Positions 5,328 to 59,862 of a stretch of 64,000 nucleotides of DNA are shown in pieces (within the stretch, counting starts at the first letter, position 1; each line of letters starts with the position of its first letter). The notes under the pieces were generated by a model that had not been told where the DNA came from, ran no database searches, and was given only the letters and a program-made list of their open reading frames with translations. Made by a program: the position numbers and the translations under genes. Source of the stretch: Eledone cirrhosa (lineage: Eukaryota); assembly GCA_964016885.1 (NCBI GenBank), contig OZ024741.1:172546001-172610000 (forward strand). Reading direction: 5' to 3'.

Positions 5328-5516
5328 ACTAGAAATTGATTAACATATAAATAAAATGCTCGGACCTACTCCTTAGAATCTTAGAGCTTATTTTACGGGT
5401 GATATCGCGCATGTCTTTCTGGCATGACACCCATAATTTTGAATTAGATTAAATTCGTTTGATTTATCTTAATTTTGTATATATATATATATATATATAT
5501 AAATATATATATATAT

Positions 5517-5988
5517 AAACGGAAAAAATGAAACGAAATTTCATTTCCCACTCTTAGTACGGCTGTTACTTAAATATAAGTATGTACACGTACATACATA
5601 TATGTATACAGACGTACAGTAGTATGTATATATATATACATACATGCACACATATATATATATGTACGTATGGATTCACCGAACATTTATTATAATGTTC
5701 GATGTGTTTGTAAACAAACATCCCGTATTAAGTCGTAGTGTCTAGCAACCATCGTTGCTCGTTTGTTCAACACTGTCAAAGGAACGGTGTACTAGTTTCA
5801 AGCTTATTAGCTATCGTCAGCAACGTATACCATCCTGCCAGATTGTTGAACGTATATACTTACCTTATGCATATTAACAGCTGCGAAGCCTAATTTGCAT
5901 ATCGAGTGGGTTAATCGGCCGGGTGCACCTAAAACGACAAACGGAAAAAATGAAAAAACTGTACGTCTGTATACATATATGTATGTAC

Positions 5989-5995
<7 letters not shown>
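5517..5995 (-). mobile_element. Retrozyme-like non-coding repeat family E (about 1.05 units plus a short inverted piece at 5959-5995)
   Basis: Homologous to 32270-32802 and 36357-37063. HHR at 5785-5825 (minus). TA-flanked. Confidence 0.8.
5785..5825 (-). ncRNA. Minimal hammerhead (family E)
   Basis: Minus strand CGTTG-CTGACGA-TAGCT aata AGCTT-GAAA-CTAG-TA-CACCG. Confidence 0.8.
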
Positions 5996-6061
<66 letters not shown>

Positions 6062-11299: not shown

Positions 11300-13900
11300 A
11301 GTGCACTAACTCCCTCTATTGCTGTCACTAACATGCAAACACAAAACAAGCTCGTTGAAACATTAAAAACCAACCACTGCTCTAACCTCCACATGTACAA
11401 TGTGTCAACCTTTCCATCAATACATAAAAATGGAAGGTCCAATTCATTGAGGATTGGGTTGGTAACCATCCACACCGCATCCTTTTCTCCGTCCTTACCA
11501 TCTCGACAACTCCCGGAACGTGTCGGCAGAAGGAAGGGTGACACTGCCATTTTCCTACGTGATTTCTTTACGGCAGATGGAAATACCTCATTCTCAAATA
11601 GCTACTGTGTATCAGTGACCGTGCACGACAAAGCCCATACTTCCCTTTAAAGAGTGCCCCAACAGCATTAACTATTTTACACAATAGTGCCATTCCGCTA
11701 ACATATTTATGATGCTGAAAAATTGCAGAACTATTCTCCATCCCCATCTATAATCTTCCTCTTGTAGTATTGATGGCTCAGAACTTCTGAGTGTTTCCAT
11801 CGAGTTCGATCTGCCAATATGCATTAGTTAAGTCAGTCATAGCGAAGAATCTTGCACAACTAAGTTTGCTGAAGATTGTTTCCATTTGTGGCAAAGGATA
11901 GGGTTCAGTGCATATCTTTTCATTCAAAGAAACTTTGTAGTCAGGACTTATACGAATTCGTCAATTTTTCTATCTAACCCAGACGACTGGAGAAGTATTG
12001 ACTACGCCACCAGGAGGGCATTTCTTGAATTTACACCTCTGGCTACCAATGCATCCAGCTCCTTTACAACATCTTCCTAGAGCGTAATAGGCACGCTTCG
12101 GGGGACACAGAATTTACGAGGTGTGTCAGAAAAGTTCCAGGACAGATGTCACAAAAGATTTATTTCAAACCCAAACTTCACACTAAGACTTTTCTCTATC
12201 AAAGTGTTTTTGAGTGGTGCAAGAGGTTTAAAGAAGGACGCGAGGACGTGGAATATGACCCCAGGAGCGGAAGGCCCTCAACAACCAGGACTGAGGTCAA
12301 CGTTGAGCGCGTCAGGCAGATGGTGCGTAATGATCGTCGGCTGACTGTACGACTGATGGCAAATGAGCTGGGCATGAATCGGGACAGCATCTGGAAGATT
12401 CTCACTGAAGATTTGGATATGCGGAAAGTCTGCGCAAAGAAGGTGCCAAAACTGCTGAACGATGACCAGAAGGGTCGACGCATGCAAGTGTGCCAGGACA
12501 TCCTCGAGCGTCTTGAAACCGAACCGAACTAGGGACAGTCATCACCGGTGATGAGTCATGGATCTTCGAGTACGACCCGGAGGGGACCCGTTTTGAAGAC
12601 GTGGACGACATCAAAAAGGCCGTGACGACGGAATTGTGGAGGATCCTGAAAGAATCCTTCCAGGAGTGCATGCAAGCGTGGCAGAAAAGGATGGAAAAGT
12701 GCATTAGACTCCAGGGGGTTACTTCCAAGGAGAAAACTCTTAGTGTGAAGGAGAAAACTCTTGGGTTTGAAATAAATCTTTTGTGACATCAGTCCTGGAA
12801 CTTTTCTGACTCACCTCGTATCAGAGGCATTAAGTATTAATTTAACAGAAGCTTTAAAGTACCAGTAATGCACTGGGTAATTGCTGGCCTTGTGCCTAAA
12901 GTAGAAACAAGTATTAATTTAACAGAAGCTTGCACTACCTGATTGTTGGAAGAAGTGATTCAACGCTGCAAGCTGTTTAAACATTCATTAAATCGTGACC
13001 TAGGAAACCATATTTTCAGCAGCATTTAATTACTTTGAAAGTATGAAGAAATTGTTGACCTCCTCACTTAACAGTAAGACAAGCATCACCAACGCATTTC
13101 ATGTAATATTCATCATATGATTCGTACGAAGTGCTGTTTTGTTATAGTCACGCCTATGTCATTTGACACTTTAGAAGAGATAATGCTGCATGGTGCACCC
13201 GTATCCTGCATCACGTAAACAATGTCAATGTAACCATTTAGGGAGACAGGTTCAAATATTGGTTTTTCAGCTATGTGACCGATAAGAATCATGATTCCAT
13301 CTTGACGAATTACCTTGTGAAGGTTCCTGGTACATAGTCGCGTTGGAATAAGCAATAACCTCCTTTTTTAATTGCTACTACAAAATTCGGATATTTGCGA
13401 AGAACGCTGTAGAAATGATTCACTAACTTCATTGGCTTGAAGAACGTTTTCTCTTTCTTCACTGCTTCTTAGACCGACAACTAACTGAGACATTATGAGA
13501 TTTCCAGTCATTGTCCTTTTAGACGTTTTCAGGCTCTCAAAATCGCAGTATTCACTGGCATGTCGATGTTTCGAAAGAAATTATGAAACTGATTCACTGG
13601 GCTGTTGGCTAGTGGAGAAAATGTTGTTCTTTCTGCCAATATCAGTTTCTTTGAATGAGTAACATTTTTGAGATTAGCGTAAGTCATCTTCGTGAAATTG
13701 TTGGGAATGTTAATATATCGGACAATCTTTAATGCTTGTATTCCGACCAAAGAAATGAATTTCATAGCCATAGGACTTTTGCCACCATCTTGTATCTTAT
13801 CCTCTACTTCGTCCACGTAAGCCTTTCCTTCAAAGGCCATGAAGCAGGTTATGACGTCTTCGATCGACTGTAAGAAATTGTCCTTGCCCTTTCCATTGTC
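11300..13900 (-). mobile_element. Decayed Ty3/Gypsy LTR retrotransposon (gag, protease and RT remnants)
   Basis: Minus translations: gag-like FISLVGIQALKIV...KKLILAERTTF (about 13600-13770); protease MQDTGAPCSII (about 13180-13215); RT ETIFSKLSCARFFAMTDLTNAYWQIELD...AINTTRG (about 11760-11885). Boundaries approximate. Confidence 0.75.
12117..12818 (+). mobile_element. Internally deleted mariner transposon
   Basis: About 56-bp TIRs (CGAGGTG.GTCAGAAAAGTTCCAGGAC...) and TA TSD. Transposase remnants W.KRFKEGRE...PRSGRPST, VCAK.VPKLL, and ITGDESWIFEYDPE joined directly to GTRFEDVDDIK. Confidence 0.95.
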
Positions 13901-17696: not shown

Positions 17697-17762
<66 letters not shown>

Positions 17763-18313
17763 GGAGGTGAGTTTTATTGTAGTACAATAAAGCAATGCAG
17801 ATATCGGATAAGAAGCACTCTACAGTTTGTGGGACTGGAGTATGCATAATATAAGATCAAAAGATGGTTAAAGGAGTTCAATATATTTTATTATGCGCAT
17901 TTCAAAAACAAACATCATCAAACAATAATATTTGTGTTTTCATCAGATAAAACAGGAGAACATGATATGAAGGCTTTTCACCCCCACCCCTCCCTAAATA
18001 TAATATATTTTTTCCTCGCACATATCCTCCCTTCGTTAATTTTCAAAAATTTTTAATTTATACAGTATCTTCCAACGGCTTTCAACCCCTCTATATAAAA
18101 TATATCTCCTCTCTGTTATAAAAACTATCTCTTTCTCTCTATCACCCATCTCTCCCTCTCATCTCCTTCCCTTTTCATCCTTTTCTCTCCCCCCCTCTCT
18201 AAATAAAATATTTTTCCCAATATCACACATCAATCTAAAACCACTTTTCATATGTTGATTTAAAACTGCACTATCAACAAGTGTTTTTTTAGCCTTCATA
18301 TCATGTTCTCCTG

Positions 18314-18380
18314 TTTTATCTGATGAAAACACAAATATTATTGTTTGATGATGTTTGTTTTTGAAATGCGCATAATAAAA
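18314..18380 (+). ncRNA. Minimal hammerhead (family D), 5' pLTR
   Basis: TTTTAT-CTGATGA...GAAA-TGCGCA-TA-ATAAAA. Confidence 0.85.
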
Positions 18381-18586
18381 TATATTGAACTCCTTTAACC
18401 ATCTTTTGATCTTATATTATGCATACTCCAGTCCCACAAACTGTAGAGTGCTTCTTATCCGATATCTGCATTGCTTTATTGTACTACAATAAAACTCACC
18501 TCCTACATTTACTTGCTCCTTAACGGTTGAGCGCTTACTCTCATATTGGATACCTTTTGATGGTCCTTCACCTCTTCTTCTACAAC

Positions 18587-20989
18587 ATGGATTATTACAA
18601 CATAACCAATTCTACTAAAGACATTCCTATACCTGGTAAATCTGAATTCACCAAACTTCTTATTGAAAAAACTGACTCCTTCGTAAGAAGACTTAGATGG
18701 ACAGCCTATTTCTATGACCAGCGCCTAAAAGGGATCTTTCATACCAAAGAACACAACTTCCTCGATCATCTTTTTAATTCCAGACGAAATCCTCCTTCCA
18801 ACAAAAATCTAGCACAATTCGAGGAAGAATTAACTAAAATTATAAAAAATCTTAAATTCAAGAGATACCCTTACAAAGGACAAGAGCACCTTGTAAATCT
18901 CAAGAACACAATCTCTAACCTAAATTCCTCAAAAAATGTTTTAGTCCACTCTGACAAAACCAATAACCTATATGGTATTTCCAAGGATAATTATAACAAC
19001 CTTATCCTAAAGGAACTTAGGAAAAAGTATCGTAAAACCAACCATGAAAATTTAGAATGCATAAACCTTGAAGCCTATGAGATTATGTCAAAACTTGGCA
19101 TTGAAAAAAAGACCGAACCATTCCTCCCAAGAACTCCGAGGATAAATCTCAAGGATCACAAAAACAATTTTCGCACTGAACTACCTGTTAGATTAATCGC
19201 CCCCTCTAAATCTGATCTGGGGGTTGTTAGTAAAGCCATCTTGGATAGGATTATCCCACAGGTTAGTTCTAATTGCTCTTCTTTAAACCTAAATTTATGG
19301 TTTGGTACTTCTGAAGTGATTGGCTGGTTCAACAAATTGGATAATAAAAACAAACTAAAATTTATTCAATTCGATATTGCCAGCTACTATTCCTCCATTT
19401 CGCCTTCACTTCTCAATAATGCTCTATCTTTCGCACTTAAATATTCTGACATCACCACAGATGAACTTCACATCATCCTCACCGCACGTAAAACCATCCT
19501 AGAGTTCAACAACGAATATTGGACCAGAGCCGATACCTCTAACAACTTCGACATCACAATGGGAGCATCCGATTCATCCCAATTGACTGATTTAATTGGT
19601 ATCTTCATTTTGAACTCTTTGAGTCGGAAAATTCCTCAACTTCGCGGTGGAATTTATCGTGACGATGGACTCTTTACTATCCTAAATTGCAATATAGTTA
19701 AACTTAATATTATTAAGAACAATATACGTAATCTCTTTAACCAACATAACCTAAAAATTGAATTTGATAATAGTACCAAACTAGCTAATTTCTTGGATGT
19801 ATCTCTTAATCTTGACACTGGCCTATATTACCCTTACCATAAAAACAATGAGAATCTTAATTATGTTAACTTTAAATCTAACCATCCTACCAATATCAAG
19901 AATGCTATAGTTAATAATATTGGAAATAGAATATCTAACATATCTTCTAATAAAAACATCTTTGATGCTAACGCCAATTACTATAATAACGCACTTTCTA
20001 AAGCTGGCTATCCAGATAAAATCAAATATAATAAAGAAACAAATTCTAGGAAAACTTACAGTAGAATATTTAATCATAACCATTCCAATAATTTTAATAA
20101 AAGACCTAGATACAAAAACATAATCTGGTATAATGCTCCTTTCTCCATCTCTATTAATAACAATATTCCTAAATTATTTTTTAGTGCCTTAAATAAATGT
20201 TTCCCTCCCTCACATATCTATAGTAAAATATTTAACAAACACACCATTAAATTTTCGTATTCTACATCCTCCAATATTTCCAACATCATTTCTAAACACA
20301 ACAACAAAATATTAAATACTAAATCTCTTCCTTCCAATATTGAATCTCATAATAACAATAATAGTACTCCTGACGTCATTGTAAACCCTAGGCTAACTTC
20401 TGTAAACCCAATTGCAACGTAAAACACAACTTCGCTAAATGTTCATAATCCAACTCTAAATCAAGAAACTATTATTCCTATTATTCCTATCGCAAACAAC
20501 TTCTCCAATCCAATTCCTTCTATAGATAACACTAGATCACTCATTAATAATCTCTCTAATTGCAACTGCCGCATTAAAAATAAATGTCCTCTCAACAACC
20601 ATTGCCTCGATAAAAACTTAATTTATGAATGTAAAATTATAACTAGCACCAACTCCTTCACCTATTTTGGCTCCACTTCCACCTCTTTTAAAGCTCGTCT
20701 CTATAATCATCATTCATCTTTCAAATACAAACTTAAAAGAACTAACACTGCTCTCTCAGAACTCATATGGTCCTTAAAAGACAAAAACATTAAATATAAC
20801 ATCTTTTGGAAAAAGATTTCTTCTGCATCCTCGTACTTGAACAGTTCTCTATCTAAAATCTGTAATCTCTGCCTAAATGAAAAATTTACCATTATCTCTA
20901 ACCTAGAATCCATAATAAATAGACGCTCGGATTTGTTTTCCATCTGCCTCCATAAATTCCATAGAACTTTTCACAAAGTATACAGTTAA
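18587..20989 (+). pseudogene. PLE RT + GIY-YIG endonuclease ORF (about 800 aa) interrupted by a single in-frame TAA at 20420-20422
   Basis: RT motifs QFDIASYYSSI, FDITMGASDSSQLTDLIG, IYRDDG, NFLDV. The same frame continues after the stop with CNCRIKNKCPLNNHC, LIYECKI..TYFGST, RLYNHHSSF, CNLCLNEK. The paralog near 3579 has TCA at this codon. Confidence 0.9.
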
Positions 20990-22222
20990 TATTCAATTCT
21001 TTATCAATTTAGAATCTTTTCTCAAAGGCACATATACATACACCTCTTTAAAATATACCCATCTACCTTACTTTAAAGGGCATTATACACTCTATAGTAC
21101 TCGTTTATTCATTTACCTCATCCTATCTTCTCGTAAAACAATAACATTTGTTTTTGACATTTTGAATATTCATCCGCAATCATTATTATTTTTTTCCCTC
21201 TATCATAAATCTTTTTAATCTCAATTTCATCCTTAATTTATTATTATATATTTTTTTAATATATACTCATATATTCTTTAAAATATACCCATCTACCTTA
21301 CTTTAAAGGGCATTATACACTCTATAATACCCGTTTACTCATCACCCTCATTATATCTCTTCGTAAAACAATAACATTTGTTTTTGACATTTTGAGTATT
21401 CATCCGCAATCATTATTATTTTTTCTCTCTATCATAAATCTTTTTAATCTCAATTTCATCCTTAATTTATTATTATTTTTTTCTCCCCATCAACGAACTC
21501 ATTATTAATACATATGAATTCAATATAAAAACTTTAACTTCACATTATTTTTCTCAAATCCTATACATAAACATTTTCTCTTTACTAATTTTAAGATTCC
21601 TACATTTCTCCTTTTGAATATTCACCCACAATTATTATTTTTTTTTCTCTCTATCTCCATACATAATCTCCCTTCGTTATTTTTTTTCTCTCTATCTCCA
21701 TACATAATTTCCCTTCGTTAATTTTCAAATTCCTTTAATTTATACATTATCTTCCAACGGTTCCCAACCTCTCTATATTAAAACATTATATCTTTTTCTC
21801 AGTTATAAAAACTATCTCTTTCTCTCTATCACCCATCTCTCCCTTTCCACCTTCACTCTCATCTCCTCCCCTTTTTTTCATCCTTTCCACCCCCACCCCT
21901 CCCTAAATATAATATATTTTTTCCTCGCACATATCCTCCCTTCGTTAATTTTCAAAAATTTTTAATTTATACAGTATCTTCCAACGGCTTTCAACCCCTC
22001 TATATAAAATATATCTCCTCTCTGTTATAAAAACTATCTCTTTCTCTCTATCACCCATCTCTCCCTCTCATCTCCTTCCCTTTTCATCCTTTTCTCTCCC
22101 CCCCTCTCTAAATAAAATATTTTTCCCAATATCACACATCAATCTAAAACCACTTTTCATATGTTGATTTAAAACTGCACTATCAACAAGTGTTTTTTTA
22201 GCCTTCATATCATGTTCTCCTG

Positions 22223-22289
22223 TTTTATCTGATGAAAACACAAATATTATTGTTTGATGATGTTTGTTTTTGAAATGCGCATAATAAAA
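22223..22289 (+). ncRNA. Minimal hammerhead (family D), 3' pLTR
   Basis: Identical to 18314-18380. Confidence 0.85.
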
Positions 22290-22321
22290 TATATTGAACT
22301 CCTTTAACCATCTTTTGATCT

Positions 22322-22364
<43 letters not shown>

Positions 22365-31267: not shown

Positions 31268-32159
31268 GCTCTAGTATTAATGTAAGGGAGATATATGTGG
31301 TTAGGAGAGAAACCAGCCGTTATATAGAGAGAAAAAATGAAAAGTAACCAGACATAGGCGAGGCAGAATTTAAAAACCCTATGTTTCAATGTAGAAATAT
31401 TAGTTCGTATAAAAACCAGGCACTATAATGTAAATACTGATATTTACATTCATGAATACTGATATTTACATTATAGTGCCTGGTTTTTATACGAACTAAT
31501 ATTTCTACATTGAAACATAGGGTTTTTAAATTCTGCCTCGCCTATGTCTGGTTACTTTTCATTTTTTCTCTCTATATAACGGCTGGTTTCTCTCCTAACC
31601 ACATATATCTCCCTTACATTAATACTAGAGCTAAATAAATAAATAAATAAATAAATAAATGTATCATTGATACGTCATTCAACGGATGTTCAACTACCTA
31701 CTTTTCTCTATATATATCTATCTCTATCTATTTCCTCTCTATATATCTCTCTCTGTTTCTTTACATGAAGTTCTTCTCTTTATCTATCTTTCCATCACTC
31801 TATTTTGTTGCATGCATTTCTTCCTTTTCTTCGTTTTCTTTCTTTCTTTCCTTCTTTCTTTCTTTCTTTCTGTTTACAATTTTTCACTGCCAAATCAACT
31901 TTTTCAAATACAAGTCGATGTTGAACGGTATGTCAAATCTATTTATCTATAAAACTGTCTATATTGTATTTTGTCTGAAGAAGGCATAACATATTGTTAA
32001 TATGATATCCCTGAAATATATATAATGAAATAAATATGGTTTTATAAATATAGTTTCCATTTATTTAATATCGTAAATATACTCCAAATACTTGTTGAGT
32101 GCTTTTATATCAGTTATAAATATTTACTAGTTGTAACCCAACAATTTAAATATAACTTT

Positions 32160-32161: not shown

Positions 32162-32196
<35 letters not shown>

Positions 32197-32269
32197 CGTA
32201 CATATATATATATATATATATACATACGTACATATATATATATGTGTGAATGTATGTATATATATATAT

Positions 32270-32798
32270 ACATACTACTGTACGTCTGTATACATATATG
32301 TATGTACGTGTACATACTTATATTTAAGTAACAGCCGTACTAAGAGTGGGAAGTGAAATTTCGTTTCATTTTTTCCGTTTATCGTTTTCGGTGCACCCGG
32401 CCGATTAACCCACTCGATATGCAAATTGGGCTACTCAGCCGTTAATATGTATAAGGTAAGTATATACGTTCAACAATCTGGCAGGAAGGTATACGTTGCT
32501 GACGATAGCTAATAAGCTTGAAACTAGTACAGCGTTCCTTTGTCAGTGTTGAACAAACGAGCAACGATGGCTGCTAGACACTACGGCTTAATACGGGATG
32601 TTTGTTTACAAACACACCGAGCATTATAATAAATGTTCGGTGAATCCATACGTACATATATATATGTGTGCATGTATGTATATATATATATACATACTAA
32701 TGTACGTCTGTATACATACATGTATGTACGTGTACATACTTATATTTAAGTAACAGCCGTACTAAGAGTGGGAAATGAAATTTCGTTTCATTTTTTCC

Positions 32799-32802
<4 letters not shown>
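32270..32802 (+). mobile_element. Retrozyme-like family E, about 1.25 tandem units (period 422 nt)
   Basis: 32341 repeats at 32763. HHR at 32494-32534 and octamer at 32419-32426. Ends TTTTCCGTTT followed by (AT)n. Confidence 0.85.
32468..32554 (+). ncRNA. Type I hammerhead with extended stem I (family E)
   Basis: GTTCAACA..CTGGCAGGAAGG..CGTTG-CTGACGA-TAGCT aata AGCTT-GAAA-CTAG-TA-CAGCG..CCTTTGTCAG-TGTTGAAC. Predicted cleavage after A32529. Confidence 0.88.
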
Positions 32803-32865
<63 letters not shown>

Positions 32866-32929
32866 AGTATTTAAGTAAGTGCCATACTAACAGTGAGAAA
32901 TGAAATTTCGTTTTCATTTTATTTCAACT

Positions 32930-36339: not shown

Positions 36340-36356
36340 TCGTATATATATATATA

Positions 36357-37063
36357 TAAGTATGTATGTATGTATACGTACATACATATATGTATACAGA
36401 CGTACAGTAGTATGTATATAAATACATACATGCACACATATATATATGTACGTATCGTTTTACCGAACATTTATTATAATGCTCGGTTTGTTTGTTTGTA
36501 AACAAACAAACAACCCGAATTACGCCGTACAGCGTTTAGGCAACCACGTCACCTTTTTTTTTAACACTGACACAGGAACGATGTACTAGTTTCAAGCTTA
36601 TTAACTATCGTCAGCATCGTATACCTTCCTGCCAGATGGTTGAACGCCTGAAAGTATATCCTTTCCTTATGCATATTAACGGCTGAGCAGCCTAATTTGC
36701 ATATCGAGTGAATTCAGTCGGCCGGGCACACCGAAAACGATAAATGGAATAGAATGAAACGAAATTTCATTTCTCACTCTTAGTACGGCACTTACTTAAA
36801 TGTAAGTATGTATGTATGTATACGTACATACATATATGTATAAAGACGTACAGTAGTATGTATATATATACATACATGCACACATATATATATGCACGTA
36901 TCGGTTTACCGAACATTTATTATAATGCTCGGATGTTTGTTTGTAAACAAACAAACAGCCCGAATTACGCCGTACAGCGTTTAGGCAACCACGTCACCTT
37001 TTTTTTAAAGTAAGTGCCGTTCTAAGAGTGATAAATAAAATTTCGTTTCATTCTATTCCATTT
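36357..37063 (-). mobile_element. Retrozyme-like family E variant, about 1.45 units (period 446 nt) plus an inverted terminal piece at 37008-37063
   Basis: 36399 repeats at 36845. HHR at 36579-36619 has stem I CGATG/CATCG. Octamer at 36695-36702. Confidence 0.85.
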
Positions 37064-37102
37064 ATATATATATATATTTATATAAATACGAATATATATA
37101 TA

Positions 37103-42850: not shown

Positions 42851-43665
42851 TGTGTTTGTATTTCTGTTTATATTTTCATTCTGCAAGAAATGTGAACAAT
42901 TTGTAATATTATTAATAAATCGTTAAAAGCTATAATAAATATTTGGGACTAAATACTTCAGACAACGGTCTAAGGGTTCCATTAATCTACAACTCTCAAC
43001 AATAGTTATTATTGTTTCACACAAATTCAGAAATTTTGGAAGAGTATTTCATTAATTAAACTGACCCCAGTATTTGACTGCTATTTTATTTTATCGAATA
43101 CTGTAACGATAAACAGCAATAGTGACCTCGGCTGAATTTGAAATCGGAACGTAACTAAATACCAAAAGGCAATTTGTTCGGGTTTCTAACGATTTTGCTA
43201 AATCACCGCCCTCTAATACTAACAAAATCATATTGGTTTGTTAAATAATCTCAAGGCTAAAATTACGTGGAGGAAATCAGCAAATTATATAGGATTCGAG
43301 ATTTATTTTTTGTCGGTCTAGTACGATTTGAACAAAGAATATAAAATACATTACTGAAATAAATAAATCGAAACATTTTGTCTGACTCATTATTGATTTT
43401 ACAAATGCTCATCGCTCTAACAATCCCCCAAAATAGCCTGATGACGCTTTAATTATCAATATATATATGTATGTATATATTTATATATATAGTAATAATT
43501 GGTTCTACTTTTGGCACAAGGCCAGCAATTATCGCAATACATTACTGGTACTTTATTTTATCGACTCCGTAAGGATGAAAGGTAAAGTTAATCTCGGCGC
43601 TCTACATGGCTGAATACAATAAATGTAATCTGAGTTTTTCGAATATTAATAATATATATATATAT

Positions 43666-46600
43666 ATTGTTATACTTGGGGAGGGTCATATTTGTGTAAT
43701 ATTGCCAGAATTAATAACAGAACACACTCACTGTTTGGTTGGTCTTCGCTTTTCGCTTCTGTGTCTTTTATATCGGTAATCTACTTTATTCGGTCCTCAA
43801 TGTTGCCATTGACTGACCAACGGTCAAAAATACAGATACAATATAGACACAAACACATATATATAGTTTATCAAAGTTCTTTCGTTGCACATCTGCAACA
43901 ATGTCAGTGGTGCTATTGTTTCCTCCCGTTACATTGTATGTCTACGCCATCTTTATTTAGTCTGTTTATATATTTATTTATTTATTTGTTTGTTTGTTTT
44001 ATTTTGTCTTCTTTGCGCATGCGTTTGCGTGTGTGTATAGTGTTTTGTTTGATGTGTGTTCGTGATTGGGTCACTGTGTATCGGTTAATGTATTCTATCT
44101 TTACTAGTGTGTGTTTATATGTGTTTGTTGTCATTGTGCTTGTGTATGTATTTATTTATTTATTTATCTATTTATTTATTTATACTTCTCTTAGGTCAGT
44201 GTTGTTTGTTTGGCTGTTGTTGTTATTCCATTCATTCTTTCTGTTTAATCTTGGCCTTCTAAGTTCTATTTCGCTGGCCTCTCTGATTTGCCTATCTGCT
44301 GGGTCATTTCTATGTTTAGATATTATTCTAATTTCTATGTTGTCTATGTTACCGTCGTGTTGTTGTCTGGCATGTTCTTATAGTACTGACCCGTTTTTTC
44401 GTCCTTTTAGTTCCCCCCAATGTTGGTCTATCCTTTCACCTATGCTACGAGCCGTCTCGCCTATGTATGTTGTAGTCATGTTTCTGCAAGTACCCTCTGT
44501 ACATCTTATGCTATAGACTACGTTTCTAGTTTTACAGTTTATCCGGGGGTTTACCTTACATATGATACATTTCCTATTAGTACAGTGGGTTTTCTTAAAA
44601 GGATAGGTTTTGCTGATCAGGGATTTTATGGTGGTTCCTCGCTTTTCTACCACCTTAATCTTTAAGTGGGTCTTTCTCAGGGCCTTTCTACACTGGTTAG
44701 CTAATTTCCCTCCAGGGGTATCGTCCACAAACATGACACTCTGGTATCTCTGGTTGTCGTACCATGAGGTGGCTTTCCCTATCTTATGTCTTATGACCAC
44801 AAGACAGTCGACGACCCGACAACAGGACCACCAACAAGACCCGTATGCGGAGCTAATATAGCTAGCAACTACAGGATCTCCTACTTCCTCTCAATGGTTA
44901 TACGCCCCATAATCAAGATGTCCCCAGATGTATGTGACAGTACAGAGGACCTCCTCAGCAGAATCAGTGAGTGCAACAAAAACAGGAACCTATCCAACTG
45001 CATAATAGGCAGCATGGATGTGGTATCACTGTACCCATCCATTAACATTGATTTTGCTGTGGAAAAATGTGTGGATATGATCATTGAGAGTGAGGTGGAG
45101 TTCAGCGACGTCGACACAGACGAACTGGGCCTCCTATTTAGACTTACCTACGACACTGACTACCTAGATAGCTATGACCTTAGACGTTTCTGCCCTAGTA
45201 GAACCATAAGAGGTGGACCCCCCACCATAACCTCAATGGCAAAAAAGACTCCCATGGGAAGGTGGATTAGGTGGACCAAAGCTATACGGACCCCCCAAAA
45301 CAATGATCAGGTAAGAAAAATGGTCGCACATGCAATAGGGGCTAGTATCAAAACTACCCTAAAGGGCCACATATTCAAGTTCAACGAAAAGATCTACACC
45401 CAAAATGAGGGAGCAGCCATTGTTGTCAGCATAGCTGGTGATGGTGCCAACCTTTTTATGGTATGGTGGGAAAGGAGACTTAAAGATCTGCTTAATGAGA
45501 GCTCCATAGACCTCATCATGTACTCTCGTTACGTAGACGATATCAATATAGTTATAAGAACATCCCCACTAGCGAGCACTAACAAGTTTGATTTAGAATG
45601 TAGCACAATGGAAAGCATCCAGCAGATAGCTAATTCCATACACCAGAGTATAACTGTAACTATCGACTACCCTTCCAAACACCCTAACAATAGACTACCT
45701 GTATTAGACACGGAACTCTGGATTAACACTGTAGACGAGAGAGCCCAAATTCTCCACTCACACTATGCTAAACCCATGGCCTCCAAATACCTGATACTCA
45801 AAAACTCAGCAATGTCCAGTAGTGCTAAGTTTAATATTCTGATCGCAGATTTGGTACGAGTGATGAAGAATGTGTCCCGCATGTGCGACCCAACAGAAAT
45901 GGAAAGACACATCCAACACTTCATCAACCGCATACAGTTCTCTGGCTACAACCAAAGAGACAGAGTCAGAGTATACGAAGGAGCCATGGAGAAGTATAAG
46001 ACCCTCATAGAACTGGACATGAAAGGAATTTGCCCATTATACAGGAGCAAATCATGGAATAGCTTAGATAGGACTAGACATAAGATAGGTAAAGCCACCT
46101 CATGGTACGACAACCAGAGATACTAGAGTGTCATGTTTGTGGACGCTACCCCTGGAGGGAAATTAGCTAACCAGTGTAGAAAGGCCCTGAGAAAGACCCA
46201 CTTAAAGATTAAGGTGGTAGAAAAGCGAGGAACCACCATAAAATCCCTGATCAGCAAAACCTATCCTTTTAAGAAAACCCACTGTACTAATAGGAAATGT
46301 ATCATATGTAAGGTAAACCCCCGGATAAACTGTAAAACTAGAAACGTAGTCTATAGCAGCATAAGATGTACAGAGGGTACTTGCAGAAACATGACTACAA
46401 CATACATAGGCGAGACGGCTCGTAGCATAGGTGAAAGGATAGACCAACACTGGGGGGAACTAAAAGGACGAAAAAACGGGTACGAACATGCCAGACAACA
46501 ACACGACGGTAACATAGACAACATAGAAATTAGAATAATATCTAAACATAGAAATGACACAACAGATATGCAAATCAGAGAGGCCAGTGAAATAGAACTT

Positions 46601-47246
46601 AGAAGGCCAAGACTAAACAGAAAGAATGAATGGAATAACAACAACACCCAAACAAACAACACTGACCTAAGAGAAGTATAAATAAATAAATAGATAAATA
46701 AATAAATAAATACATACACAAGCACAATGACAACAAACACATATAAACACACACTAGTAAAGATAGAATATATTAACCGATTCACAGTGACCCAATCACG
46801 AACACACATCAAACAAAACACTATACACACACGCAAACGTATGCGCAAAGAAGACAAAATAAAATAAACAAACAAACAAATAAATAAATAAATATATAAA
46901 CAGACTAAATAAAGATGGCGTAGACATACAATGTAACGGGAGGAAACAATAGCACCACTGACGATGTTACAGATGTGCAACGAAAGAACTTTGATAAACT
47001 ATATATATGTGTTTGTGTCTATATTGTATCTGTATTATTTTTGACCGTTGGTCAGTCAATGGCAACATTGAGGACCGAATAAATTAGATTACCGATATAA
47101 AAGACACAGAAGCGAAAAGCGAAAACCAACCAAACAGTGAGTGTGGTCTGTTATTAATTCTGGCAATATTACACAAATATGACCCTCCCCAAGTATAACA
47201 ATATTTGTTTCGACACACGATTTCATATAAAAAACCTTGCAAAACT
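43666..47246 (+). mobile_element. Nematis-like Penelope element, 5'-truncated, with a 1.1-kb inverted 3' copy (43666-44791)
   Basis: 43666-44791 is the reverse complement of 46076-47202. TA tracts at both ends. Confidence 0.92.
44792..46681 (+). pseudogene. PLE RT + GIY-YIG ORF, 5'-truncated, with in-frame TAG at 46124-46126
   Basis: RT motifs IGSMDVVSLYPSI, YTQNEGAAI, YSRYVDD, PVLDTELW. EN motifs CIICK..NCKTRNVVY...YIGETARSIGERIDQH. Confidence 0.9.
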
Positions 47247-47258
47247 ATATATATATAT

Positions 47259-48104
47259 GTTTCTTTTATTTGCCACTAGGGCATCAAAAGTGAGACAAGT
47301 ACAAAGGGGGGGAGTTTACAGAAAAAGGCGTCCTCAATAAGGAGGAGGCAATAACAAAATATAAAAATAAAATAAGATATAACAAAAAATAAAATTTTTA
47401 ACAAAATCCTCAATAGAGAGGAGGCGCCTTGGGGGGTCGCACACACCCCCGAAAAAAGTGTGCAACCCTTCTCCTCAGGAGCACAGAGAAGGGGGTGCTC
47501 CCTTGATCTTTCATCTTCCTCACCTATAGTCTGATGTAGAGTGAAGGCCCATTCACACGGGCCATTCTCGCCACTTTCACCCATCTTTCATAGAAACGGC
47601 TGGGGTGCAGCACCTCTCTCTCCATCCTGATCCTTCTTCCGAAATGATATCGGAAGAAACGGACCAGTTGTTGGCCAGAGAGAAAGGTGCCTGACCTCAG
47701 TCCTTTCAGACGCGTCCACCATACAACCTCTTTCGCCATGGCTATTACGCACAGAAACACCGCCTCTGCTTCATCTTTGAAGGGGGGAGGCGGCTTGATC
47801 ATTACAATAGACTCGGTGGTCAACCGGATCGGTCCCACCCTTGACAGCAGTTGTTCGACATAGCCCCACAGATCGGCTACGCCCGAGCAGTGTACCAATG
47901 CGTGTGCAACGGTTTCCTCGTCGCACACGCATCTGGGACAGATCTTTTTGGCGGGGTCCCTACCCGGGCGCCCGTGTCTGTAGAGCCTTTCTCGAACGGG
48001 TAAAGCCCCTCGGTAGCACTGCCAGGCCAGGGACTTCTGGAAGTTGTCCATAGGTCCCGGGCTGAATGTCCTACCGAACAGGCTGGCCAGTTCGTCCTCC
48101 TCCA
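47259..48104 (-). mobile_element. Tx1/L1-clade LINE 3' fragment with about 21-bp TSD
   Basis: ORF 47524..48105 has CPRC..DEETVAHALVHC (CCHC finger). AATAAA lies near the 3' end. TSD TGCAAAACTATATATATATAT at 47238-47258 and from 48105. Confidence 0.85.
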
Positions 48105-48109
48105 TGCAA

Positions 48110-48186
<77 letters not shown>

Positions 48187-56086: not shown

Positions 56087-59000
56087 TAGAAACATCGCGA
56101 ACAGTCGCATATTTTGGCGTGGGAGACTATTTATTAAATTTAAGATGAATACTATCTCCGACAGTAATGCCACAACTACAGTCATGTTGAATAACTGGTT
56201 ATTCTTCTAACTATATCTTCTGAAGACACCTTTTATTCGAATTTGTAGAGATTTCCGACTAAATACATAATTCGTTTTACAGGGATTTTTAATAATGATT
56301 TATTTAATTGTTATAAAATGGCAAAAATCAATCCCTCTATTGGCTATATGAACAGAATGAAGCTACACTGGGACGAAATAGACCCAGAGCTAAATTATTT
56401 GACAGTGAAACAATTACGCCAACAAGCAACGTTTATTGAACGTAAAAATAAGATAAATATTATTAATTGTAAGTCTCCCACAAAAAAACATGCGATCAAC
56501 AACACGTGCTACAGGTCGCCATGATACTAGACTTCCTATCAGCCAGGTCGAACAGTGCCTTGAAACAACTATGCCTGTAAGAAACTTGACACCACGTGTA
56601 CCATTAAAGTCTACCTCGAATGCTGGGGAAAACACTATCGATAATAATAATAATCTAAGAAATTTGACACCACGTGTACCATCCGAGTCTACCTCGACTG
56701 TTGTGGAAAATACTATCGATAATGATAATCAAAAGTATAAACAATTGAAATTTTCCCTCAACGAAATCTTCCAGAGAGAAATTAATTCATGTATAAAAAT
56801 CTCTCTTGCTGAACGTATTAAAACGACAATGTTTAATAAAAAACAAATAATGAAATACTACGTGTTATTGACGAAATAGGGGATGAATATTTACGACGGA
56901 TAAAAAGCCCAACATTTTGGCAAATCAACGCCTGTTTATATGACCTAGCAACGACAGTGTCACAGTGGTGATAGCAGAGATATTAACAAGAATAGAACAC
57001 CACCAAAAATACCATCATATATAACTAAAATAGAATAAAAGATTGCTGATCTACGAAAAACCATAGGACATGTGACAATGCTCCTTACATGCAAACAAAC
57101 AAAAAAATCCTCACTCCTCACCAACAAAGAGTGAAAAATGAAATAGAGACGATGTTTGGTAACAGTAGAACCAGAACTCTCCAATATAAGCTGATTACCC
57201 TCAAACAAGAATTGAGAGCTGTTAGCGAAAAACGCCGATACCTGAAGAAGGTAGATGAGAGAAAAGTGCTTAATAAAAGATTCAGACGAAACCAAACATC
57301 AGTCTATAGAGATATGAAGGGCAAAATAATAAGTGTCACTGAGGCGCCATCCCAGAAAGACATAGATTCCTTTTGGAGCAAAATATGGGGTGAAAAGAAG
57401 AATTTCAACCAAGATGCAGTGTGGCTAAGAGAAATCCGAAAGAACTATTGCTCCTACACTACAACAAAAACATACGAAATAAGTGAGGGTACCCTTGAGA
57501 CTGTGATAGGAAAACTCCAAGATAAGAAAACACCAGGAAGAGACATGATTGTCGGCTACTGGTACAAAAAACTGAAATTCTATAAGAGGTATCTTACTGA
57601 CTCTACCAACAAGTTCTTAAGGGAGATACACTTATACCAGAATGGTTGACATTAGCACAAACATTACTGGTCCTCAAGAACAAAGACACCCACTTGGCAA
57701 AAAACTACCGACCCATTGAATGCCAGAACCTGATGTATAAGATGTATACAGCCTGCCTGAACCTATTCCTCCAAGATCACTGTGAAAATAATAACATCAT
57801 CACAGATGAACAAGCAGCTGGAAAGAAAGGGGTTTGGGGATGTGCTGAACAACTCCTAATCAACAAAACTGCGATGTCGGAGGTGTGACAACTTAGGAGG
57901 AATATGACTACAGTCTGGCTGGACTACAGGAAAGCTTTCGATTCTGTTCCCCACTCTTGGATGATAGACGCCCTCCAACTTGCTAAAGTCCCAGACATTG
58001 TTGTCAGAGCCATAGAGAGGCTGTCTTCTTCTTGGTCTACTATCCTAAGGTTAAAGACAGAGAGGGAGGACTCTATTTTCACTGATATAGTATTGCAGGG
58101 GTATATTTCAGGGGGACAGTCTCTCTGTGATATTATTCATCTTGTCATTAAACCCCTTGTCCTTTCTGCTCAAGAAATGTGAGGGATACATCATTGGCTC
58201 ACAGGAGGACAGAAATACGAACCTAACCCATAATTTCTTTGTGGACGATCTGAAACTCTATGCCAAGAACATGGATGGGATGAAGAAAAAGCTTGACCTG
58301 GTTACAATGTTCTCAAAGGATATAGGAATGGAGTTTGGCCAAGATAAATGCTCATACATAACTGTAAAGCGGGGAAAAACAACCCAATATAGCAACATTG
58401 TCATCAATAGCCTAACTGTTTCACCGATATCTGATGAGGACTGTTACAGATACCTGGGGATAGATGAGAACATATCCTATAATGGTATCTGTAATAAAGA
58501 ACGCGTAACCAGGGAATACTACACCCGATTAAGAAAGATCTGGTCATCGGAACTCTCTGCGCAAAACAAAACAGTGGCTCACAATGTGTTTGCTGTGCCT
58601 GTCCTAACACCAACGTTTGGAATACTCAATTGGACGATAGATGAAATCCGAGCAGTTGATGTTGGAACTCGAAAAATACTAAACAACACCAGAAACTTCC
58701 ACATCAAAAGTGACATAGACCGCCTTTACTTGAAACGTAAACAGGGAGACAGAGGCCTAACATCAGTCCAGACAACATTTGAATGTCGCATCATATCTCT
58801 CCGACAACATCTACGAACTTCGAAGCGTAGGAGCCCGTTTCTCGAGCAAGTCTATCTGCATGAAACAGATAAGATCATGAGAGTTGGGAAGGAACTCTTC
58901 GAGAGATATTCCCTGTGCGATAATCAAAAACTCACACCCAGGGAAGTCGCTCAGCAATATCGCAGTGAATCCATGGATGAAAAACTGCATGCTTATCAGC

Positions 59001-59862
59001 AAAAAAATCATGCATGGATATGTTGCCAGGAAGCTCCAGAGTGAGAGCAATATAGATAAGGGAAGTAGTCTATCTTGGACCAACAACCGGTATATTGGCT
59101 CCCACTTTAAAGGATACGCTTTTGCAATCCAAGAACAGGAGATTAACACAAAATACCTGATTCATAAAAGAGATAGGGATGCAGGCAGAACACCTAGATG
59201 TAATAACAAGTGCAGACTCTGCAGAACTAACATCGAGGATATCAGCCATGTCATCAGCAGCTGTCCAAAGATGTCATCGCGGTACTATATATCTATGAGG
59301 CATCATGTAGTGGCCAAAACACTGTATAATTCAGTTCGTAAAAACCCCAGCAGATGCCCAGCAGATGCCAATATAATATTAAAGATTAGTGAAAAGGAGA
59401 ATATTTATGCAAAACTGATGAGAAATCTGCAGATACTCCACCCTGATTACACCTTCAGATTTATGCCTGTGATTATTGGGGCACTGGGGTATGTTAGTAA
59501 CTGCCTCAATACAAATCTTGAGAAGCTAGGCTTCACAGGAACAGAAAGAACACAACTAGTTAGGAAATTACAAGTACAATCCATTAATGGAACAGTAAAA
59601 ATATGTAAAACATTCCAAAGATTTTGCATCTAATAACTGCATATACACATGTACAGATGCAAAGCATATACACATGCACACATACAACTCAAAACATACA
59701 CATCCACACATACAATAACATCCATATCTACACATGCATGCATAAATACATATCTACCTAGTTGATGTTGTGTAAATTCCAATGAGAGAGTCTGGTGTCT
59801 ATGTTAGAAACCGACTCTCCCTCTATTGGTAAAACTTTGTGAAATTATAAAACCAGAAGAAT
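56087..59862 (+). mobile_element. Near-full-length, frameshifted R4/Dong LINE between (ATAC)n tracts
   Basis: KNYRPIECQNLMYK, WLDYRKAFDSVPHSW, GIFQGDSLS, HNFFVDDLKLY, YRYLGIDE, CRLC..IEDISHVISSC, RHHVVAK. Part of the RLE domain is deleted near 59345. Confidence 0.9.

Follow-up and report, generated by a model that had tools for sequence, protein, structure and literature searches.

Which enzyme copies a tandem repeat of 422 nt without an ORF, and from which form of its RNA? This question is raised by a small locus in the middle of the window, as we call the whole 64-kb stretch of Eledone cirrhosa DNA analyzed here. We propose, with a probability of about 0.62, that the dispersed non-coding hammerhead unit is a non-autonomous non-LTR retrozyme copied by a PLE protein, probably from circular RNA. 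That the unit is a PLE-mobilised retrozyme is in our opinion very likely, and as the main template we lean towards a circle. A link between PLEs and retrozymes has already been proposed in print (Cervera and de la Pena, 2020, PMC7229834; Li, Clavereau and Pollet, 2026, bioRxiv 10.64898/2026.07.22.740005), and the class itself is already known, so that the gain is mechanistic and not categorical: we regard the unit as a non-LTR retrozyme family that is new and in which the footprint of PLE mobilisation is unusually clear. The enzyme and the circular template of animal retrozymes have previously been argued from co-occurrence and pLTR similarity, and here thousands of copies record the integration by two start sites, a strict pairing of long and short ends and a (TA)n target. 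The PLE tail rule, for which we found only qualitative accounts, is now quantified, and a structured 422-nt RNA without ORF is available as a substrate on which predictions at the level of single bases can be compared with PLE activity in vitro, for circle versus linear RNA.

The repeat unit and its hammerhead

The earlier note on this DNA had reported three loci (5517, 32270 and 36357) with periods of 422 and 446 nt, and sequence inspection together with BLAST within the window recovered all of them (Table 1), with periods of 422–424 nt at 32220/32644, 446 nt at 36351/36797 and additionally 422 nt at 5515/5937. The focal locus is real, but 32270 is not its start, as the copy actually extends from about 32220 to 32804. 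Its left target tract follows a hammerhead-bearing PLE-type pLTR (core at 31975) on the 3′ side. The third locus, with the period of 446 nt, has about 82% identity to the focal copy. In agreement with the first description no ORF is present; the longest ATG ORF comprises 51–53 aa in circles of subfamily E1 and 110 aa in one TA-expanded unit of subfamily E2.

Table 1. Positions of the retrozyme copies, their parts and neighboring features within the window.
Feature	Position	Strand	Source
Focal retrozyme copy, subfamily E1, about 1.4 units, 5′-truncated, L-ended, single hammerhead	32220..32804	+	
Type I hammerhead, extended stem I	32468..32554	+	
Short (S) 3′-end site; loop of a predicted 6-bp hairpin	32730..32748	+	
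56–59-nt "tail" between S and L, with predicted hairpin	32746..32804	+	
Left (TA)n-rich target tract	32162..32219	.	
(TA)n tract adjoining the L end	32805..32862	.	
Separate tail-only fragment, E2-like, stops near the L site in (TA)n	32863..32927	+	
Second locus, L-ended arm, about 1.05 units, single hammerhead with stem I mismatch	5515..5957	-	
Second locus, short inverted arm, stops a few bases before S in (TA)n	5959..5997	+	
Third locus, subfamily E2, S-ended arm, single hammerhead	36357..37009	-	
Third locus, short inverted arm, L-ended in (TA)n	37005..37065	+	
Candidate helper, Hydra-type PLE ORF (RWT, DKT, YRDD, CxCX5C; one in-frame stop), outside the element	18524..20989	+	
Candidate helper, Neptune-type PLE ORF (YVDD, CX4CxxC linker; one in-frame stop), outside the element	44768..46681	+	
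Other hammerheads	884, 1189, 5175, 8386, 15999, 16288, 18320, 22229		
Other hammerheads	30914, 31975, 35954, 36067, 39207, 46958, 53590, 55015		
Broken non-LTR RT (RVT_1)	57050-59633		Pfam
zf-RVT fragment	47524-48111		Pfam
HTH_32 transposase-like fragment	12029-12532		Pfam

The hammerhead of the focal copy runs in the order stem I CGTTG, CUGACGA (32499–32505), stem II, GAAA (32520–32523), stem III, cut and CAGCG, with cleavage predicted after A32529; the opposite strand of the unit is without a hammerhead. The core, the palindromic stem III CTAG and the two additional helices that extend stem I were confirmed. Stem II has a 6-nt loop and a U-U at its base, stem III comprises 2 bp within the palindrome ACTAGT, and with this short stem III and the U-U the predicted ribozyme looks weak. 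The coordinated change claimed for stem I is evident among 95 CTAG hammerheads, in which CGTTG/CAGCG occurs 42 times and CGATG/CATCG 28 times, but the copy at 5515 is mismatched (CACCG). As each copy in the window carries one hammerhead, none is able to release a monomer by its own double cleavage, and most copies with one hammerhead per strand, including all three in the window, are likely dead ends.

To describe the conservation of this structure, 30 pairs of the hammerhead were scored on 19 copies of the subfamilies E1, E2 and E3 and of the sister family F. In total 89.8% of the cells are paired, compared with 33–48% in slid controls, two-sided changes occur at 13 of the 30 pairs (3/6 in proximal stem I and 3/4 in stem II, E1–E3 together with F), and the covariation score was matched by none of 500 shuffles. 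Since the covarying cells represent some four lineages that are related to each other, and not independent events, we read these values as conservation of the structure and not as a probability. For 15 whole monomers, RNAalifold gave two-sided changes at 21 of 81 predicted pairs, among them a predicted long-range helix that joins the tail region to the +55 region; within E alone, the tail region is 98.6% paired with two-sided change at just one of 25 pairs. The fold of the unit has a z-score of −5.9 and the circular folds range from −5.1 to −10.8. One branched layout is common to the predicted circles of E1, E2 and F, and the hammerhead is formed in five of six predicted circular folds.

The genome-wide copy count that had been suggested as a check revealed 9,559 matches of the exact 34-nt core in the 3.0-Gb assembly, far above chance and with no match of the reversed control. 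In a sample of 40 loci chosen by another motif, this exact pattern covers just 22 of 53 hammerhead regions (the catalytic core is kept in 46), which brings the total to about 20,000 copies or more. The older subfamily E3 (80–85% identity) has 1,692 relaxed-pattern matches, a few of which are due to chance. The sister family F, with a 466–470-nt unit, 9,747 core matches and 65–74% identity to E in parts, has the same CTAG stem III and forms long, very young arrays with intact short and long ends (L111–L140 and L189–L193, for example C1:5.738–5.753 Mb and 30.831–30.841 Mb). Taken over all, the units have 410–470 nt and a GC content of 35–38% and occur as dispersed monomers to multimers. At least two same-strand hammerheads were found in 11 and one per strand in 69 of 80 insertions.

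Fixed 3′ ends, inverted arms and (TA)n targets

These 80 insertions correspond to the clusters that the first 100 exact-core matches form on chromosome C1, and in general our sampling was largely confined to the initial 65 Mb of a single chromosome. Of their 115 3′ ends, 97 fall within two intervals that make up 8.5% of the unit, compared with 2 of 45 5′ ends, with phases that were determined by BLAST in TA-rich sequence and are blurred by a few bases. In detail, 45 ends belong to the short site S (+208 to +224 from the cut, 36 of them within +216–220), 52 to the long site L (+259 to +277, 39 within +274–276) and 18 lie elsewhere; both sites are about 56 nt apart. The different phase at the ends, which had been noted before, is therefore a property of the 5′ ends, whereas the 3′ ends are held at two fixed sites. 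The 3′ ends of family F are located at sites homologous to S and L of E. In the focal copy, the S site at +216 to +219 from the predicted cleavage is read through, with a second occurrence at 32308–32326, and the L end meets (TA)n at 32804, the L site at 32382 being read through. Loose S and L ends also recur in four unlabelled contig runs with DNA-like data (S ends at 32323/32326), and pieces of the unit are present in two further organisms, coded B and C. No RNA run in the index contained the sequence, which has no bearing on whether it is expressed.

A single orientation was found for 45 of the 80 insertions, 35 are inverted tail-out and none is head-out, although a few inverted calls are based on short pieces and some single-orientation loci conceal short inverted arms. 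The inverted insertions comprise 23 L+S pairs, one L+L pair, no S+S pair and 11 cases with one unclassed end, which is an L+S excess with P = 1.5e-6 against 50:50. A second sample picked by end motifs (107 arms at 79 loci, with one insertion possibly counted from both sides) contained 42 arms with a complementary partner, none with a partner of the same type, 33 with a partner with an unclassed end and 32 without detected partner. L+S pairs are also present at two of the three window loci. Short inverted pieces had been reported for all of them and were found at 5515 and 36357, where they are 5′-truncated second arms and not terminal inverted repeats, but no such piece was seen at the focal locus. 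Genome-wide, the L motif leads into TA 5,475 times and is read through 5,836 times, and the corresponding numbers for the S motif are 4,188 and 13,571. A TA-rich flank is present at 75 of 97 S/L ends versus 14 of 45 5′ ends, and the arms meet at the inner junctions with a median overlap of 0, small overlaps or inserts also occurring.

PLE insertions are known to consist of partial tandems plus an inverted 5′-truncated copy, in which often just one of the two ends carries a tail, and a (TA)n target bias has been described for Hydra, Neptune and Naiad (Craig et al., 2021, PMC8557442). With a purified PLE protein the tail turned out to be delimited by a pair of internal RT start sites, and in the same assay both target strands were cut and extended and a dimer was predicted (Frangieh et al., 2024, PMC11167929). 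The retrozyme has two 3′ ends with a tail, variable 5′ truncation, partial tandems, an inverted arm and (TA)n, which is the PLE footprint without the ORF, and this match makes copying by a PLE protein a strong inference. The PLE RT that the earlier note had named as the presumed mover is thus backed by the two fixed 3′ ends, the long-plus-short inverted pairs and the (TA)n targets.

The RNA template and rival explanations

With regard to the template, we analyzed L-ended arms irrespective of a hammerhead, namely all 45 that were listed along C1 up to 43.3 Mb. In total 28 arms exceed 315 nt and 20 exceed 422 nt or one unit; 4 stop at 255–315 nt, the expected stop of a cleaved linear monomer, and 13 are shorter than that, one of these being a measuring failure. 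As the arms cross the cleavage site without pile-up and 20 of 45 are longer than one unit, the template was a circle or an uncleaved multimer, and the cleaved linear monomer is out as main template. The prevalence of one hammerhead per strand, in combination with one F insertion in which intact S and L ends enclose 12+6 identical units, favours the circle without proving it.

The proposed course would begin with transcription of multi-unit loci. The hammerheads are predicted to cut after the equivalents of A32529, probably as dimers via the ACTAGT palindrome, and the monomer would be ligated to a branched circle. According to the footprint, a PLE endonuclease/RT, probably as a dimer, would nick both (TA)n strands, and reverse transcription would begin inside the RNA, at S on one strand and at L on the other. 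The subsequent steps are visible in the DNA: both arms cross the cleavage site, often run beyond one unit, stop at random and are joined 5′ to 5′, which leaves either a lone arm or an inverted insertion with the tails outward, of which one end is long and the other short. Some arrays acquired higher-order duplications afterwards.

Such higher-order repeats are dimers at L180 and L055, a hexamer at L196 and a tetramer at C1:51.77–51.80 Mb. Circular dimers or multimers as their templates were rejected, as the variants differ between the arms (6–13 in L180, 8–18 in L188). No higher-order variant is common to different loci, and among the arms L178 is an exception with 2 differences between them. 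These mismatched and locus-specific variants indicate later duplications or assembly effects; the higher-order arrays are satellites that arose from old insertions, or assembly effects. Divergence between the higher-order blocks is near zero in L180, L055, L196, L181–L184 and L185.

A circle would be unnecessary if PLE-driven insertion started from the uncleaved linear multimer of a few multi-unit arrays, with a hammerhead that is inherited, protein-assisted or used for transcript trimming only. We consider this unlikely, although arms across the cleavage site fit it equally well, long arrays are present as possible sources, and stems II and III are weak. It is also in line with in vitro data, as the hammerhead was dispensable for the one PLE studied and unprocessed RNA was the main template, with an anole Poseidon protein that prefers unprocessed RNA and hammerhead mutants that insert normally (PMC11167929). 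A point against our preferred reading is that eight of nine Xenopus retrozyme dimers stayed uncleaved in vitro (Li et al., 2026). Against the linear multimer, the core and the monomer-closing stem I have been kept by compensatory change across families that are 65–74% alike, the great majority of insertions has one hammerhead per strand even though many arms exceed one unit, and no shared 5′ flanks hinting at read-through transduction were seen.

The copies might also be solo or tandem pLTR remnants of an unsampled coding PLE family, an alternative already named at the outset, but no such case came up at the loci that were studied. The sequence upstream of the hammerhead is again the retrozyme unit and not an endonuclease ORF, no non-TA flank recurs at the 80 loci, nearby PLE ORF matches are unrelated neighbors or nested targets, and relaxed core searches gave retrozyme subfamilies or chance matches only. 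We therefore judge this reading very improbable, although ends, inversions and target are exactly PLE-like, the sample covers part of the genome, and in Xenopus 24 of 57 retrozyme families are similar to the pLTR regions of Repbase TEs, almost all of which are PLEs (Li et al., 2026). An ancient pLTR origin of the unit is likely. Spread at the DNA level as a satellite or minisatellite, by unequal crossover or extrachromosomal DNA circles and with an incidental hammerhead, has hardly any chance: the dimer, tetramer and hexamer repeats do reflect post-insertion duplication in long arrays, but the loci are mostly 1–2 units long and dispersed, the RNA structure is kept by covariation, and target-primed reverse transcription is indicated by the L+S rule and by 3′ ends that are fixed while the 5′ ends are random, so that this spread is largely refuted by end polarity. 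We thus maintain the retrozyme copied by a PLE protein, probably from a circle, as the preferred explanation.

Candidate helpers and comparison with known systems

Both candidate helpers in the window were typed by the motifs of PMC8557442. The Hydra-type PLE has hammerhead pLTRs at 18320 and 22229 and the Neptune-type PLE a hammerhead-like pLTR at 46958, and the pLTRs of both end in (TA)n at two positions. As near-complete PLEs with inverted arms they span 17755–22329 and 43664–47258, respectively. Pfam detected no domain in the four PLE ORF pieces, and the Atlas returned unnamed eukaryotic clusters only. The distances from CUGA to the ends are about +247 and +306 in E, +245 and +288 to +305 in Neptune B1 and about +92–102 and +176–198 in the Hydra families. 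Using a PLE library masked for retrozyme sequence, a survey of 121 free 5′ ends in 193 loci for hybrids gave 13 rows of free 5′ ends that adjoin library pieces. Two of them are clean hybrids in tail-out arrangement with (TA)n at their borders, and none involves Neptune. In L108 a retrozyme S arm is combined with a Hydra-type L tail (97.6% identity), and in L164 a retrozyme L arm is combined with a pLTR that stops near its own S site and is tied to a Hydra ORF by adjacency in L031 alone. Both could instead come from a deletion beside an older PLE, and L277 contains a PLE join of this kind in the opposite orientation.

The clues to the helper conflict, as the end spacing resembles Neptune and the hybrids hint at Hydra. 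A Hydra-type helper is a realistic possibility, a Neptune-type helper is conceivable, and another PLE appears quite improbable. It is tempting to speculate, though we think it rather unlikely, that a dimeric Hydra-clade PLE protein rolls the retrozyme circle, primes two RNAs asymmetrically at S and L and can co-load retrozyme and PLE RNA, leaving hybrids like L108 and L164. If true, the enzyme behind an animal retrozyme would be identified, its integration step would have a first genomic record, and the rule that PLEs have a tail at one end would be explained. No pLTR homologous to E or F was found among the window PLEs and the sampled pLTRs, with Naiad and Poseidon families outside this sample. 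With three relaxed core patterns, 37 hammerhead-bearing segments and 17 Neptune 3′ regions we looked for a homologous partner without a convincing result, the best retrozyme–pLTR comparison having a z-score of about 3.5 among many comparisons, and none of the sampled loci has an RT-endonuclease ORF attached to the repeat at a constant position. A Hydra-type ORF at L053:1309-4210 contains a nested retrozyme, whose insertion site is non-TA and has a short duplication of about 9–12 nt, and this composite is partly repeated in inverted form.

The match with non-LTR retrozymes made in the earlier note held for each sequence-level feature open to testing, as we found a type I hammerhead, a palindromic short stem III and a tandem, non-coding and dispersed unit with a GC content below 45%; a self-paired circle with accessible hammerhead is predicted. 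The class was defined by Cervera and de la Pena (2020), with circles in coral, mussel and axolotl and PLEs as candidate helper. Metazoan non-LTR retrozymes, including newt satellite 2 and SM-alpha, resemble E in the type I hammerhead, short non-coding tandems, GC content below 45%, thousands of copies and a self-paired predicted circle (PMC7229834), and axolotl HHR_Amex2 in addition in the U-U at the base of stem II and the 2-bp stem III. Their units of about 170–400 nt are slightly shorter than the 410–470 nt found here, and circle and cleavage of E are predicted. Fixed ends, tails and inverted arms as seen here are unmentioned in the main text of PMC7229834. The Xenopus retrozymes share with E non-autonomous units with PLE partners, dispersed monomers and rarer multimers. 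Li et al. (2026) base the connection on PLE co-occurrence and pLTR homology, discuss local tandem amplification and call the mechanism open, in contrast to the direct integration footprint, with no pLTR homologue found, in our case; mollusc and tail analyses are absent from their main text. In giant squid, 235 Rfam hammerhead-1 loci were listed as uncharacterised (PMC6962438), and other papers considered are PMC7761336, PMC4209133 and PMC2220036.

Among PLEs, Poseidon PAc (PMC11167929) and Hydra/Neptune (PMC8557442) have, like E, a hammerhead upstream of two internal 3′ ends. Endonuclease-positive PLEs also share the tail at one end, the inverted 5′-truncated arm, partial tandems and AT-rich or (TA)n targets, but they differ by a tail of 30–40 nt and a minimal hammerhead, whereas the retrozyme has no ORF, a tail of 56–72 nt and a canonical hammerhead in which stem I is long. 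Plant LTR retrozymes and hammerhead viroids are likewise small non-coding hammerhead RNAs for which a circle is proposed. The type III hammerheads, LTRs, PBS/PPT and 4-bp target duplications of plant LTR retrozymes were not seen here. In the literature outside Dfam, Repbase and subscription papers we found no publication on this family or on fixed retrozyme ends. Rfam assigned no family at gathering score in the window and no hammerhead at E up to 5, and its matches below threshold are TA-rich microRNA look-alikes only.

The promoter of newt satellite 2 contains an octamer as a characteristic detail. This octamer, ATGCAAAT, is absent upstream of the host U1/U2 genes and sits within a predicted stem of the unit. 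A snRNA-type promoter as in newt satellite 2 was rejected, as the octamer failed; the other elements were compared by eye. The host U1/U2 promoters (L197–L220) have, judged by eye, TCAGT near −57 and a pyrimidine-rich TCCCTT near −250 to −265 in common. A T5+ run in five of six units argues against Pol III read-through.

At least seven further type I hammerhead families are present in the 64-kb window, most of them with palindromic stem III and most ending in (TA)n at two distances; Rfam finds none of them. A third, unrelated tandem hammerhead family with a period of 310 nt was observed at L059:50-2100 and L086:1600-2000. It has a stem III CGCG, a U-U at the base of stem II and an inverted array that ends in (TA)n, and its stem II is like that of another hammerhead family (L037, L049, L085, L100). 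Furthermore, L069 carries two hammerheads with stem III CTAATTAG at 1166 and 1708, 542 nt apart, which are possibly a further retrozyme or a short PLE derivative.
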